DNA of 64,000 bases from contig OZ240248.1 of assembly GCA_965198235.1 (NCBI GenBank), positions 4,544,001 through 4,608,000 of the forward strand, in the 5' to 3' direction. The DNA comes from Candidatus Poribacteria bacterium (lineage in GTDB: Bacteria; Poribacteria; WGA-4E; WGA-3G). Positions 37,400 through 61,758 of the stretch are shown one piece after another. The position numbers and the translations under genes were made by a program. Below the pieces are notes generated by a model. That model saw only the letters and a program-made list of their open reading frames with translations, was not told the DNA's origin and did no database searches. The number at the start of each line of letters is the position of its first letter. Position 1 is the first letter of the stretch.

Positions 37400-37545
37400 A
37401 GGAAGCGGCACTCTGTGTGAGGCGTATCCTGTAAGTGTGTAGAAGAATTTCATACCTTATATCGGTATTTCTTTTTTCATCTGATCTGACAGGATACTGT
37501 GCTCTGTTCCACCGCTTTCCCGCGAAAGCAGATGCGTGAAACATG

Positions 37546-37756
37546 ATTCAGGCAGGTCTCCTGACTTCCGATCATTTAGCGTAGTTACAAGCCAAAACTC
37601 GCACTACAGAGTTCCGCTGAACCTTCCCATCAGTTATCTGACAGTGGTTTTTCAACGGATAATTGCCTTTGATAGAGGCTGATCGTTCACAGTGGCGGGG
37701 CCGTGGCGGATTCTCACCGCGCTTCCCTATTCTCCGTAATTCGGCACCTGAACCGT
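37546..37756 (-). ncRNA. Cobalamin (AdoCbl-type) riboswitch
   Basis: Minus strand aggtgcc...aatagggaagcgcggtgagaatccgccacggccccgccactgtg...ccactg...gggaagg...aagtcaggagacctgcc (B12 box). Confidence 0.95.
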
Positions 37757-37974
37757 TAGTTTATTCAATTGTAATACATATATTATATCACGTTGCACTA
37801 TCTTTTGCAAATATTTTTTTCCAATGGGTGTGTAAATATTTCGGCAGCGGGTTGTCAGAAATAGGCTTCTTCGGTCTTAGGCAAATACGGGGCACAAACT
37901 AACAGTTTCTGCTACAGGGTAGCCCTTGTCATAATTGCGTGTCAAAAACTTTACACACCCTTTCCAATAAAAAT

Positions 37975-57213: not shown

Positions 57214-58536
57214 TTAAAAATCGACTTCTTCTTCGATTCTAATAAGTTGTGCTTCGTCTTTTACATCTTCGAGTGTGTAAATCTGCGCGAGCGCGGCTTT
57301 CATGTTTTTTTCTTGTGCTTTGTGCGTCAACATCACCAACGATACTGTCTCCATGCCGTGCGGATCCTTTTGGATGACAGACGCGATGCTAATCTGCCAG
57401 TTCCCCAGAATAGTTCCGATTTTCGCCAGAACGCCGGGTCGGTCGGCAACCACAAAACGGATGTAATACCGCGTCTCAATATCATCAATAGGACATATGC
57501 CGACTTCCGCCTGTGCCCCTGCGAGCCATGCTTGTGAAATCGGGGTGCTTATGCCTTGTTGCACAGATTTCGCGGCATCAATGATGTCAGCGACAACAGC
57601 ACTCGCCGTTGGCATCTCACCAGCACCCTGTCCATAAAAGAGGGTCGGACCGACTGCATCACCGATCACACAAACAGCGTTGAATGCACCACCGACGTTC
57701 GCTAACAAACTCCGCTCTGGCACGAGTGTCGGATGTACACGCGCCTCCACACGATTTCCGTCGGTTAGTTTCGCGATTGCGAGCAGCTTAATGACGTAAC
57801 CGAGTTCGCGAGCGTATTGAATCTCTTTTTGGGTGATACCTGTAATACCTTCAACATGGAATTGCGATAGTGAGATATTGCTCCGATAGGCGAGGGCGAT
57901 CAGGAGAATGAGTTTTTGTGCAGCATCAATTCCTTCAACGTCAAGCGTTGGGTCGGCTTCGGCGTACCCCTTGTCCTGCGCGACTTTGAGCACATCTGAA
58001 AAGTCTACAGCGCGCTCGTGCATTTCGGTCAAAATGTAGTTACACGTACCGTTCACAATACCATAAAGGGAGTGGATCTGGTTGCCAGCGAAACTTTCTT
58101 GTAGGGTTTTAATGATCGGAATACCACCCGCCGTGCTTGCCTCGAAGTTGAGACTCACTTGGTGTTCTGAAGCCAGTTGGAACAACTCGCCACCATGTTC
58201 GGCAAGAAGGGCTTTGTTTGCTGTGACGACGTGTTTACCATTTTGGAGTGCGCGTCTAATGACGGAGTGTGCTGTTGTGACACCGCCGATAAGTTCAACA
58301 ACAATATCGATATCTGGATTGTCAACGACTTCTGCGGGGTCCGTTGTTAAACAATCCATAGGAAGCTCAACACCTTGCCGCGTCGCGGGTAACGTCCGTT
58401 TTACTATTTTTTTTAGGCACAATTCCGTGCCACTATTTTTGGCAATGAGGGAATTCTGATTCATCAGGATTTTGGAAACGCCAGTGCCGACAGTACCCCA
58501 TCCTAAAATGCCAACATTAATACACGACTTGTCCAC
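57214..58536 (-). CDS. hom: Homoserine dehydrogenase with ACT domain
   Basis: [37 protein letters not shown]. Confidence 0.96.
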
Positions 58537-58616
58537 TACTGCAACCCCCTCCTTTCTTTACTATTTATCGCGCGGCTTGTATACACCACTTACAAGACGA
58601 TATTACATATCAGAGA

Positions 58617-58690
58617 TCGGGGCGACTGGATTCGAACCAGCGACCTCTTGAACCCCATTCAAGCGCGCTTCCGGGCTGCGCCACGCCCCG
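58617..58690 (-). tRNA. tRNA-Pro (anticodon GGG), CCA not encoded
   Basis: cggggcgtggcgcagcccggaagcgcg cttga atGGGgt tcaag aggtcgctggttcgaatccagtcgccccga. Confidence 0.96.
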
Positions 58691-58713
58691 TTAACAGAAT
58701 CAATTTCCTTTTA

Positions 58714-58743
58714 ATTGTATCACAAGTCATCGTGTAATGTCAA
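58714..58743 (-). promoter_or_regulatory. tRNA-Pro promoter
   Basis: Minus strand TTGACA-18 nt-TACAAT. Confidence 0.7.
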
Positions 58744-58783
58744 GTGATAGACCCAAGTCTAAAGACTTGGGCTTCTGCAATCA

Positions 58784-59998
58784 TTAAGCAGAAGCATTTG
58801 TGGAATTCAGAATCGGATGGTTAGATTCAACGGAGCCGCCTACGATCTTGTTAAACAAAACAATAGGTCTTACAACTCCTAACCCAAAGGAAGCTATCCC
58901 TTCCTTAAGAATGTTCATAGCAGCGTTCTCGTCGCGGTCCAGGTGTGTATGACAACTTGGACACGTCCAGTGACGATCTGATAGCGTGAGATTTTCATTT
59001 TTATCTCCACACACACAACAGCACTTTGTGGTGGGAGACCACCGATTGATTTTCAGCACAGAGCGGATACGCTTGTGACTCTGGTGTTTGAGTTTCTGAT
59101 AGAACTCACCAAAACCAAGGTCAGATACCTGTTTGCCAAAGAGTGCTTTCATGCCGCGAAGGTTCAAATCTTCAAAGAACAGGATGTCAAACTGACGACA
59201 AAGTTCTATCGCAAGTTTCCAATGGTGGTCTGCTCTCTGATTCGCAGTCTTCTTATGGATACGTGCAACGTTCTTGCGTTCGCGTTCGAGATTCTGAGAA
59301 CCTTTGACCTTGCGAGAATACGCCTTTTGTGCTGTCGCCAACTTTTCAGCATTCTGTTTGTAGAACATCGGAGAGATATATCTATGACCATCACTGCCGA
59401 TCAAGAAGTCTTTAATACCAAAATCAAACCCTTCAGCTTGACCCGTCTTGGGTTCAATTTTAATTTCGGTATAGTCTTCTGTCAGGGTGATATACATATC
59501 TCCGAGTGCGTCCCTCGTTACATGAACTTCAATGATGATGCCTTTGATTTCACGGTGCAGAGCAAACCGATACCAACGACCGTTGAGTCGGATTTTATAC
59601 GTCGGGTGGTTCCTCTCGTGTTTTTGCGCGTCCAGCACTTTTTCTATTTTGACCTGTTCACCGCGAAACGTCATCCCTTTGTGTTTCTGACAGGACTTGA
59701 ATTTCGGGTGACCTCTACCGAGCGTTTTTATTTCTTTGAAACTCTGGGTTTCCAGACGCTTGAGAACATTTTGCAACGCCCATGAGTAGGGAATATTCCA
59801 ATGCTGGTATTTTTCAAGACGCTTCAGTTTCGTCAAATGCTTCGACATTTTGGAATACGACACGCCTTTCCCATAGCGGCGGTAATATCGCATAGACAGC
59901 GCAAGGAAGTGATTCTTGACAACGCCAGAGATATTGCACTCGTCGTGCAGGTGACACAATGTCTTATCCTTGAAAAGTTTGTGTTTTGTGTTTCGCAT
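58784..59998 (-). CDS. tnpB: TnpB RNA-guided endonuclease (catalytic motifs intact)
   Basis: GFDFGIK (RuvC-I), FEDL (RuvC-II), CCVCG/CPSC Zn finger, DRDENAA (RuvC-III). Confidence 0.93.
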   Translation of the reverse strand: MRNTKHKLFKDKTLCHLHDECNISGVVKNHFLALSMRYYRRYGKGVSYSKMSKHLTKLKRLEKYQHWNIPYSWALQNVLKRLETQSFKEIKTLGRGHPKFKSCQKHKGMTFRGEQVKIEKVLDAQKHERNHPTYKIRLNGRWYRFALHREIKGIIIEVHVTRDALGDMYITLTEDYTEIKIEPKTGQAEGFDFGIKDFLIGSDGHRYISPMFYKQNAEKLATAQKAYSRKVKGSQNLERERKNVARIHKKTANQRADHHWKLAIELCRQFDILFFEDLNLRGMKALFGKQVSDLGFGEFYQKLKHQSHKRIRSVLKINRWSPTTKCCCVCGDKNENLTLSDRHWTCPSCHTHLDRDENAAMNILKEGIASFGLGVVRPIVLFNKIVGGSVESNHPILNSTNASA

Positions 59999-60010
59999 GG
60001 TATCTCACAG

Positions 60011-60090
60011 ATCACAGAGTTTTACCCCGTTCAAGTGGGTAGGCAGACACGTAACCTTGCGATTACGCTTGAACTGTCTGCCACTGTGAT
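60011..60090 (-). ncRNA. Structured, pseudoknotted 5'UTR RNA of tnpB (unassigned family)
   Basis: Four stems plus a 7-bp GUUCAAG/CUUGAAC pseudoknot, between a promoter and the tnpB start. Confidence 0.7.
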
Positions 60091-60097
60091 ACTCTTA

Positions 60098-60126
60098 ATT
60101 ATACCACATTTTTGGCTAAAAGTCAA
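60098..60126 (-). promoter_or_regulatory. Sigma70 promoter of tnpB
   Basis: Minus strand TTGACT-17 nt-TATAAT with TGn. Confidence 0.8.
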
Positions 60127-60199
60127 GTCTTTTTTCAACAGAGACCCACGGTCTCATTCACAAGGGACAGACTGTATCCCAAACCTAAAGGATTGGGTT

Positions 60200-60860
60200 T
60201 TAGTCTCGGAAGGTTAGATAAAAGAGGGGAGATTCGTGTTGTGTGCCATCAGAACAGGTGAACATCGTTTTGATACCGAAATCATATCCTGCAGCTTTAC
60301 CCGTCTTGGGTATAATTTCGGTTGCGACGTGGTCTGTTGTGACAGACATATAGAAATCTCCAAGCGCATCTGCTTTGACAGTCACTCTCTTGATATTACC
60401 AAGTATCGGGCGAGACAAGTTGAAGCGATACTGTTTGTCCATGATCCGAACCTTATCGCCATAGATACCAAAACCTGATTCGCCTTCTTCAGGATCGGCA
60501 AACGTGAAACCTGACTGGCACATCGTGAACGAATACGGCTTCCGCCATGACCGAAACTTCGGCGGACGTTTGGCAAGTTTGTTAAAGAAACGCTGGTAGC
60601 CTTGGTCCAATCGTTTGAGGATTTCACGCGCAGACCACGTGTTCAGTTCTCGCCAGTGGGCAAACATTTCAGGATGCGAGTTCTTTAGCACGGTAAACTC
60701 ACGCGACATTTCACAAAAGGACATATACGGCAGTCCGAGAGAGTACCGGGTGCGTTGCCAACCGAGAAAATAGTTCCATATTGTGTGTGCTATCCACGTC
60801 TTACGTCTCAAATTACGCAGACGGGGCGTTATTTTCTATAACGCAGGTTTTTATGTTCGC
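60200..60860 (-). pseudogene. tnpB: Second tnpB, degenerate 5' end and truncated just after RuvC-I
   Basis: WNYFL, RLDQGYQRFF....PPKF, GYDFGIK...SDG then stop at the left end of the downstream element; own left-end hairpin cccactcctttaggtttggg at about 60943-60962. Confidence 0.85.
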
Positions 60861-60966
60861 CTACTCTTAAGAAGAGTATCATATCAGATTTTCCAAATCG
60901 TGTCAAGGATTTTTTGACCTTGCACGAAACACGTGGGTTGGACCCAAACCTAAAGGAGTGGGATTG

Positions 60967-61758
60967 TTAGTGAGTCTTCAGATTTCTGAGACTGATGCCT
61001 AAACTTTCAAACGGATCGCGTTCGTAGCAGGTGTCCTGTTCGATAATATACCACTCAACCTCTGCGTAGATACAAGCGTTCAGAATCGCTGTCCAATTAA
61101 GGTTGCCTTCACCGATTTCTGCGAAGCGTTGTGTAGAGCCTTGCATCGCCATATCCTTGAGATGGATGATGTCGGCGCGTCCTTTTAACTGGCGAATCCA
61201 CGCGGCTGGGTCGCCACCACCGTGCTGAATCCAGTAGGTATCCAGTTCACTCTTGAAGTAATTCGGATCGCTTTCCGCATACAAGATCTCTAACCCAGTA
61301 CGTCCGTTATAGCGTTCCAATTCGAAACTATGGTTATGATAGGAGAAAGTCAAGCCTCCTTCAGCAAGGCGCGCCGCGACTTCCGATGCCTCCCTCGCAA
61401 ATCTGGCATACCCTTCAGCAGTCCGGTATTCACTGGGAAGTCCACCGATTGCGGCATGCTTGCATCCCCACAATTGATGTTCGTCAATAACAGATTGTGG
61501 TTCGTCACGCATCCGTTCGTAACTTGTATGTGTCGCAATGATGCTGATGCCTTCACCGTCAGCAATGTTTTTCAATGCGGCGGGTTCAATTGGACCCAGT
61601 GCGGAACATTGCACCGCCTCATATCCGAGTTGCCGAACCTTTTTCATCGTTTCGGCGATATCAGTTTCGGTTTTGGTAAATTCCCGAACAGTATAAAGCT
61701 GCGCGGCGATTTGCTGCGCTGACAGTGATGAATGTCCTTGGGCGTTTTGTGTTGCCAT
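60967..61758 (-). CDS. Sugar phosphate isomerase/epimerase (xylose isomerase-like TIM barrel)
   Basis: AQLYTVR, YHNH.FE, ELDTYW, HLKD, GEGNL.W, IEQD; GGAG SD. Confidence 0.9.
   Translation of the reverse strand: MATQNAQGHSSLSAQQIAAQLYTVREFTKTETDIAETMKKVRQLGYEAVQCSALGPIEPAALKNIADGEGISIIATHTSYERMRDEPQSVIDEHQLWGCKHAAIGGLPSEYRTAEGYARFAREASEVAARLAEGGLTFSYHNHSFELERYNGRTGLEILYAESDPNYFKSELDTYWIQHGGGDPAAWIRQLKGRADIIHLKDMAMQGSTQRFAEIGEGNLNWTAILNACIYAEVEWYIIEQDTCYERDPFESLGISLRNLKTH

Follow-up and report, generated by a model that had tools for sequence, protein, structure and literature searches.

A pseudoknotted RNA leader with a duplicated closing strand precedes tnpB and other mobile-element genes in Candidatus Poribacteria

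We describe an RNA leader that lies between the promoter and the start codon of tnpB in a tnpB-only element of the IS200/IS605 type. Judged from the sequences compared here, the leader belongs to a family of structured RNAs at the 5' ends of transcripts in Candidatus Poribacteria that, as far as we have checked, has not been described. The element is in a stretch of 64,000 nucleotides (contig OZ240248.1 of assembly GCA_965198235.1, positions 4,544,001 to 4,608,000), referred to as the window; unless a contig label is given, coordinates are positions in the window, and the leader and tnpB are on its minus strand (Table 1). The leader folds into a three-way junction with a bulge-loop pseudoknot, and the 3' strand of the helix that closes the junction is duplicated in tandem upstream from the start codon. 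We tentatively propose, with somewhat less than even confidence, that the leader may be a cis-acting translational switch that uses the tandem strand as its expression platform.

The predicted fold of the leader is more stable than expected from its composition. RNAfold yielded helices P1 to P4 with a free energy of -34.3 kcal/mol, compared to -24.66 +/- 2.98 kcal/mol for shuffled sequences (z = -3.23; 0 of 200 shuffles were as good). An earlier note on this DNA, made from the sequence alone, had described the promoter, P1 to P4, the pairing of the bulge with the P4 loop, and the distance to the start codon, and every detail was borne out by reading the minus strand and by RNAfold. The start codon of tnpB (59998) is 12 nt 3' of P1. 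The same note had called tnpB intact, which it is (Table 1), and had found no leader in front of the neighboring tnpB remnant, consistent with the single copy that a covariance model detected in the 64-kb window. Two features had been overlooked. The 3' strand of P1 is duplicated (CUGUGA-U-CUGUGA, 60017-60005), and the fold belongs to the left end of a repeated mobile element, with 26 copies in the genome.

The fold is kept by compensatory mutation. The 145 bases before the ATG recur 26 times in the genome with 67-100% identity, and a covariance model built on 23 distinct copies from this genome recovered the same 26 sites. In these 23 copies, 96.3% of 730 pair cells were standard pairs, compared to 82.3% when columns were shuffled and 26-41% when the partners were slid by 1-3 columns. 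Both sides had changed in 18 of the 33 pairs, and the covariation score was 0.380, versus 0.123 for shuffled columns and 0.04-0.07 for slid partners. RNAalifold predicted P1 to P4 from the alignment alone.

The pseudoknot was the most variable and the best compensated helix. In the 23 copies, 95% of its cells were paired, with changes on both sides in six of its seven pairs. Among 153 parsed copies from many genomes, all seven pairs were present in 146, with 50 distinct sequences; with shuffled partners the corresponding value was 4.8%. G-U pairs were rare in the pseudoknot (6 of 1071) and U-G pairs were frequent in P3 (9 of 23 copies at one position and 5 of 23 at another). The U-G pairs of P3 would be C-A mismatches on the opposite strand, indicating that only the sense strand can fold. 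Near-invariant parts of the leader are P2, P4, the bases of the junction, the bases on either side of the bulge (A23 and C31), and the bases opposite these two (G48 and U49).

The leader is found in two subtypes with the same architecture. Low-scoring matches in a sister genus revealed subtype 2, in which P2 is GGUAGAGA/UCUCUACC. In 11 subtype-2 sequences, 91.9% of the cells were paired, the covariation score was 0.403 (versus 0.160 for the control), and the pseudoknot was 98.7% paired. The leader described above is subtype 1.

Both tandem copies of the P1 3' strand covaried with the P1 5' strand. The proximal copy forms P1 and the distal copy forms an alternative helix, P1', in which 85% of the cells were paired. 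For example, the pair 11-83 of P1 was CG in 10 copies, AU in 7, and GC in 4, and the pair 11-90 of P1' was CG in 9, AU in 7, and GC in 4. Two or more partners of at least 5 bp were present in 152 of 153 subtype-1 copies, and in 111 of the 152 they were offset by 7 or 8 nt. We tabulated 103 subtype-1 copies that had both an open reading frame (ORF) of at least 300 amino acids and at least two partners; the distal partner ended 2-6 nt before the ATG in 47 of them. The P1 sequences of subtype 2 are quite different, and tandem partners were nonetheless present in 10 of the 11 sequences. In nine of these ten, the distal partner contained or abutted an AUG, and in all four copies linked to tnpB this was the tnpB start codon. 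Minimum-energy folds of 100 copies were in the proximal register in 67, in the distal register in 28, and neither in 5, indicating that the two registers are close in energy across the family.

The tnpB genes behind the leader typically lack a Shine-Dalgarno sequence. A 4-nt Shine-Dalgarno core was present between positions -20 and -4 in 4 of 103 subtype-1 tnpB leaders, compared to 276 of 519 ORFs of the genome taken as a crude control. There is none upstream from tnpB of the window, and the neighboring gene hom carries AAGGAGG. We also considered whether the P1 strands resemble the extended anti-Shine-Dalgarno region of 16S rRNA; inspected by eye, they allowed at most 4 bp of pairing, and the idea was dropped.

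The leader is a portable module, mostly of mobile-element genes. In the genome of the window, 19 of the 26 copies were followed by an open frame of at least 360 amino acids. The TnpB subfamilies encoded behind the leader are only 24-57% identical to one another and have visibly different 3' scaffolds. The leader of the window and that at C1:4636322 are 87% identical and the corresponding proteins are 37% identical. Leaders up to 87% identical in front of such divergent subfamilies indicate that the leader is kept far better than the protein or is exchanged as a module. One further copy in the genome (L002, C1:2106876) is 99.2% identical to the leader and promoter of the window over 130 aligned bases; its start codon is CTG in place of ATG with no long frame behind it, and the copy looks like a twin of the element in the window that was disabled recently.

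The genes downstream were surveyed in 187 loci, all of them chosen for a match to the leader sequence, the model, or the pattern; these included 154 distinct subtype-1 copies. A TnpB-like frame on the same strand followed 146 of the 154. Of the other eight, three had no downstream sequence in the locus, two were internally deleted elements that retained the leader and the right end, and three were outside any insertion sequence (IS), with their own promoter and small unrelated ORFs downstream. Subtype 2 was followed by tnpB in 4 of 11 cases. Elsewhere it preceded a DDE_Tnp_4 transposase, an N6/N4 DNA methylase, a gene pair with a ParE-like toxin domain, a small basic ORF with an IS1595-type DDE transposase behind it, and, on two of three viral contigs, a GIY-YIG nuclease that scored above the Pfam cut-off. 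A metagenomic subtype-2 copy with an interrupted 3' half (L209) was followed by an ORF with a 3-keto-disaccharide hydrolase domain. The small basic ORF occurred in two loci of the sister genus (L191 and L194) and encodes a very basic protein of 42-56 amino acids (MARKCGTRARSAKTGRYVKK...) with its own Shine-Dalgarno sequence and no Pfam family; in L191 it precedes the IS1595-type transposase. A promoter-like site was directly upstream in every leader context that we read.

These contexts indicate that the leader is neither a TnpB guide nor specific to TnpB. It had been proposed to be separate from the guide RNA that elements of this kind produce from their 3' end, and its location agrees: it precedes tnpB within the left end and follows a promoter of its own, and by established TnpB biology the 3' end and the flank give rise to the guide RNA.

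The leader is widespread in one family of Candidatus Poribacteria. Matches to the model were present in each of the 24 other genomes sampled from the genus and in none of the 16 sampled from other families of the order. In a draw from the whole phylum, 92 of 151 genomes had matches, approximately 1,190 in total, including 86 of 99 genomes in one family (f1) and 5 of 26 in another (f3); there were no matches in 25 genomes from the other seven families of the draw. A scan for the exact pattern in one genome per prokaryote species found at least 112 stretches. The 80 pattern matches listed were all titled Candidatus Poribacteria or uncultured Poribacteria, except one titled 'uncultured bacterium'. 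Viral contigs contained two more subtype-1 copies and three subtype-2 copies, and metagenome contigs contained seven subtype-2 copies. The leader was not found outside Candidatus Poribacteria in these searches, which were built from Poribacteria sequences.

From the fold, its conservation and position, the two registers, and the gene contexts, we infer that the choice of register may control translation. In the proximal register, the 5' end of the RNA would close the pseudoknotted junction and leave the start region single-stranded. In the distal register, P1' would place the same 5' end over the stretch before the start codon (or over the AUG itself in subtype 2), thereby hiding the start. 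The leader would in this way set the output of TnpB, or of another mobile-element protein, from a message lacking a Shine-Dalgarno sequence. Which register forms would be decided by the conserved pseudoknotted core, for example if the pseudoknot can dock only when the strand between P4 and P1 has one particular length, and a ligand, a protein, Mg2+, or temperature are candidates for the trigger that shifts the register. The earlier note had listed translational control among several cis-regulatory roles; the comparative data favor that role and gave no evidence for or against an antisense partner.

Several observations weigh against the proposed switch. The start region was open in 67 of the 100 predicted folds, and the distal register may be rarely populated. 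The folds were computed with ViennaRNA, which ignores the pseudoknot. In L200, L203-L205, L191, and L194, the Shine-Dalgarno sequence and AUG of the main gene are approximately 20-140 nt past the distal copy, making a direct block impossible there; at most, a short upstream ORF could be affected. Lastly, P2 and P4 barely vary in sequence, which suggests a specific partner, and the switch model names none.

A bolder version of the model is, in our view, unlikely. Here, the core would be the aptamer of a new riboswitch class or a dock for a dedicated factor, and unrelated selfish nucleases and transposases of Poribacteria would read one host signal through it. The readers would be TnpB, DDE transposases, GIY-YIG homing nucleases, a methylase of the restriction-modification type, and a toxin-antitoxin pair, and the leader would spread as a portable cassette of promoter and leader that acts through the register-shifting closing helix. 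If this were so, mobile elements would have in the leader their first dedicated sensor RNA, and TnpB expression its first known regulator.

A role at the level of the transcript is likewise improbable in our estimate. As a 5'-terminal element, the fold could protect the message from decay that depends on the 5' end, or the nascent RNA could make RNA polymerase resistant to Rho or to termination, as the put RNA of phage HK022 makes polymerase termination-resistant. Either way, a poorly translated tnpB message would be completed and its 3'-end guide RNA delivered. The fold is always within a few nucleotides of the predicted transcription start, both registers pair the first bases of the RNA, and tnpB messages that lack a Shine-Dalgarno sequence would be exposed to Rho. 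Furthermore, the leader serves many unrelated mobile genes, and tnpA-tnpB elements in which tnpA is first manage without it. This role leaves unexplained both the duplication of the P1 3' strand and the distal copy's tracking of the start codon. In addition, a simple hairpin would suffice for protection, and the leader does not resemble any Rfam family.

We think it very unlikely that the leader is a self-cleaving ribozyme, specifically a circular permutation of pistol. In subtype 1, UUAAA follows the pseudoknot hairpin and AGCGU follows the pseudoknot strand, a placement that we take to resemble that in the env25 pistol sequence. G48 and U49 did not vary in any of the 23 copies. The available parts of PMC4604425 and PMC6154101 give the same pseudoknot topology for pistol, and the nucleases of phages and mobile elements near the leader are similar to the gene company that the available part of PMC4604425 reports for self-cleaving ribozymes of bacteria. 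However, the order of strands is permuted, with the hairpin 3' of P2-P3 and an extra helix, P1, closing the fold, and up to E 10 there was no match to an Rfam ribozyme model. Both G48 and U49 have a candidate Watson-Crick partner, which would leave no free 2-nt junction: they are opposite C31 (CG in 22 of 23 copies) and A23 (AU in 23 of 23), although pairs that never vary are uninformative either way. The pairing of purine 32 with G33, before the pseudoknot strand, and the G33-C41 pair with G40, which are essential in pistol according to the available parts of the pistol papers, have no counterpart. Only A23 precedes the pseudoknot strand, and position 24, which is U in 18 of 23 copies and G in 4, is paired with position 69. 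The UUAAA linker is missing from subtype 2. After a cut at the corresponding site, the pieces would still be joined by P1, P2, and the pseudoknot (approximately 21 bp), and a ribozyme does not need to be at the very 5' end of a primary transcript. We do not class the leader as a pistol ribozyme.

Autoregulation by TnpB, which the earlier note had allowed, is highly improbable. The leader would be a binding site for TnpB, a mimic of the guide scaffold, or a partner of the guide RNA, in keeping with its position in the tnpB 5' untranslated region (UTR) and with the same-strand tnpB behind nearly all subtype-1 copies. The proposal is contradicted by the gene contexts, in that leaders 75-87% identical precede TnpB subfamilies as divergent as those described above, with different 3' scaffolds, and the leader also precedes genes other than tnpB. 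By eye, there was no complementarity in the right end that covaried with the leader. Complementarity of the P4 loop to the DNA past the right end was ruled out separately; that flank differs in every copy.

A role as a single-stranded DNA structure of the left end, used by TnpA in peel-and-paste transposition, is largely refuted and has next to no probability: the fold is inside the left end, its sense strand also folds with DNA parameters (z = -3.46), and the pseudoknot is almost purely Watson-Crick, but three tnpA-tnpB elements in the genome have the same type of left-end hairpin and promoter followed directly by tnpA with no leader, indicating that the fold is dispensable in cis for TnpA-dependent transposition; the fold accompanies DDE transposases, GIY-YIG nucleases, and a methylase, none of which use TnpA; and P3 has frequent G-U pairs and the fold always comes straight after a promoter.

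The element that carries the leader in the window is complete. Within its left end the order is hairpin, GC-rich hairpin, promoter, leader, and then tnpB (Table 1). Transcription is predicted to start at approximately 60092-60090, and the fold begins approximately 7 bases past the -10 box. The promoter consensus TTGAC...TGTGGTATAAT is kept across 151 leader copies and ends 14 nt 5' of P2. Four copies in the genome (L002 at C1:2106876, L009 at C1:2575449, C1:5121041, and C1:79612) have a palindromic insert of approximately 42-75 nt just upstream from the -35 box, which looks like a miniature inverted-repeat element that hits one spot. The 3' region of the element folds with z = -2.54. In four metatranscriptome runs from one study, available as contigs and compared over 58500-60500, contigs covered the leader and tnpB; a 483-nt contig spans 59580-60062 and another spans 60054-60198, across the promoter. 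From such contigs one cannot read where a transcript starts or ends, how abundant it is, or whether it is cut, and paralogous copies are summed in them.

Table 1. Features of the element and its RNA leader in the window
Feature	Position	Strand	Basis or comment
Leader core: three-way junction of P1, P2-P3, and P4 with bulge-loop pseudoknot	60011..60090	-	covariance model 96.7 bits, E 4.7e-25
P1, AUCACAG / CUGUGAU	60090-60084 / 60017-60011	-	7 bp
P2, GGCAGACA / UGUCUGCC	60082-60075 / 60049-60042	-	
P3, loop GCAA	60067-60061 / 60056-60050	-	
P4, UACCC / GGGUA	60041-60037 / 60027-60023	-	
Pseudoknot 5' strand, GUUCAAG, bulge between P2 and P3	60068..60074	-	exact complement of the 3' strand
Pseudoknot 3' strand, CUUGAAC, in the P4 loop	60029..60035	-	7-bp pairing with the bulge
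Distal copy of the P1 3' strand, CUGUGAGAU; makes P1' with the RNA 5' end	60002..60010	-	ends 3 nt before the ATG
tnpB-only IS200/IS605-type element, complete, 1474 bp	58744..60217	-	limits are where 13 left and 19 right flanks of genome copies cease matching
Ends of the element: left end begins; right end (...GGGUCUAUCAC) stops	60217; 58744	-	flank comparison of genome copies
Target or transposon-adjacent motif TTAT	60218..60221	-	TTAT or TTTAT 5' of the left end in aligned copies
Left-end subterminal hairpin, CCCAAUCC-UUUA-GGUUUGGG	60178..60197	-	corresponds to the right-end hairpin; presumably bound by TnpA as single-stranded DNA
GC-rich hairpin GAGACC-GUG-GGUCUC, then UGUU	60141..60155	-	upstream of the promoter, kept in most copies; may block read-through from outside; not picked up by a terminator scan
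Sigma-70-type promoter, TTGACT (60126-60121)-17 nt-TATAAT (60103-60098), TG extension	60098..60126	-	11/12 matches
tnpB ORF, 404 aa, intact, ATG at 59998	58784..59998	-	Pfam PF07282 and PF01385; E 5e-47 to solved ISDra2 TnpB chains
Right-end hairpin, CCCAAGUC-UUUA-GACUUGGG, and UCUAUCAC	58744..58771 (hairpin 58771-58752)	-	conserved to ...TATCAC, flanks diverge beyond; expected 3' end of the guide-RNA scaffold
Flank that, from established TnpB biology, would template the omega RNA guide	58724..58743	-	coincides with promoter-like site for tRNA-Pro

The surroundings of the element have features of their own. Its right end adjoins a promoter-like site (TTGACA-18-TACAAT, 58714-58743, minus strand) 23 nt upstream from tRNA-Pro(GGG) (58617-58690, minus strand), and the flank that would template the guide of this copy is therefore the tRNA promoter. 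On the other side is the older tnpB remnant (60200-60975, minus strand), which has its own left-end hairpin (approximately 60960-60940) and promoter (TTGACA-17-TATGAT, 60906-60878). Its frame matches TnpB only as far as the TTAT at which the intact element starts. Beyond the right end of the intact element the DNA is not tnpB, indicating that the 3' part of the old copy is missing. By eye, the leader of the remnant forms a hairpin whose 3' strand is also duplicated (AGACGU-A-AGACGU); this leader is unique in the genome and was ruled out as a second family. Elsewhere in the genome, three more genes for Y1 transposases (PF01797; L066-L068 at C1:3853757, C1:606918, and C1:1898775) are flanked by repeated short palindromes, such as GCACTCC-AGCG-GAGTGC, and have no IS hairpins; they look like tyrosine transposases associated with repetitive extragenic palindromic (REP) sequences, with their REP arrays. 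Far from the element, the window contains a cobalamin riboswitch aptamer (RF00174, 93.4 bits, 37534-37766, minus strand).

Cas12 descends from TnpB, itself a genome-editing tool, and to our knowledge the natural control of TnpB expression is largely undescribed. With approximately 1,190 matches in 92 sampled genomes, the leader is a ready subject for work on structure and function. IS200/IS605 elements share one RNA module with unrelated transposases, homing nucleases, a methylase, and a toxin pair, which suggests that mobile DNA in this uncultured phylum of sponge symbionts has a common control point or a common host factor. For an RNA switch, a closing strand duplicated in tandem is an unusual design and one that is easy to test. 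Should the core bind a ligand, it would define a new riboswitch class; should it cleave, it would be a permuted ribozyme.

The leader matches none of the families of Rfam 15. Between 58000 and 61500, at E up to 10, there were only a tRNA and a chance-level S774 match away from the leader. Seven other leader loci had no match at E up to 1, and 18 leader-bearing loci (144 kb) had none at the gathering score, at which the whole window had only the cobalamin riboswitch and tRNA. The Rfam models RAGATH-18 and uup had no match in this genome. A motif called 'Poribacteria-1' reportedly belongs to a 2017 study of 224 motifs and is the main caveat on novelty. The name was found in no searchable paper, nor in the main text of that study (PMC5737381); if the motif is in Rfam 15 it does not match the leader, and otherwise the two may be the same. 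Literature on a tnpB leader, riboswitch, or pseudoknot returned only the 3' guide RNA, IStrons, and TldR, with no structured tnpB 5' leader described, and in the available part of the TnpB diversity paper upstream features are mentioned in other senses only.

Omega RNA (right-end element RNA, reRNA) is one of the known RNAs closest to the leader. Its sources are the right end and the 3' end of tnpB, and its guide is taken from the flank. Like the leader, it is a structured, pseudoknotted RNA of the same element; unlike it, the leader is at the 5' end behind an internal promoter and contains no flank sequence. A second structured RNA of the same IS family is the leader of IS200 tnpA, a simple stem-loop that hides the ribosome binding site and keeps translation low. 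Both are structured 5' UTRs, but the leader described here is a pseudoknotted junction in front of tnpB that is missing where tnpA is present and is common to unrelated mobile genes. The tnpA 5' UTR of Salmonella IS200 is processed into regulatory RNAs, according to the available part of PMC5435999.

The pistol ribozyme is also close to the leader. Both are compact, and in both a hairpin loop forms a pseudoknot with a strand that links the left shoulders of two stacked helices; in the leader, this is the covarying pairing of the P2/P3 bulge with the P4 loop (topology as defined in the available part of PMC4604425). They also share a conserved G-U step on the opposite strand and the company of phage and mobile-element genes. 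The leader differs in its permuted strands, the extra closing helix, the apparent lack of an unpaired GU junction, and the lack of an Rfam match.

Close to the leader, too, are the purine and tetrahydrofolate (THF) riboswitches, which have a three-way junction, a long-range loop contact, and an expression platform based on P1. The leader shares with them a junction closed by P1, two arms held parallel by tertiary pairing, a conserved core, and a P1 strand that also belongs to a mutually exclusive helix at the translation start (P1 and P1'). It differs in that its long-range contact is bulge-to-loop and 7 bp long, its platform is a tandem P1 strand, and there is no match in sequence or model. 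It also differs in its apparent targets, which are mobile-element genes rather than those of metabolism or transport. The genes typically downstream are those for TnpB, DDE transposases, GIY-YIG nucleases, the methylase, and the ParE-like pair; the exceptions are small ORFs of unknown function and the hydrolase-like ORF of L209. Based on these comparisons, we conclude that a cis-acting structured leader with alternative helices is, as a kind, well known, and that the fold, the register-shifting duplicated strand, and the sharing of one leader among unrelated mobile elements are new as far as we have checked.

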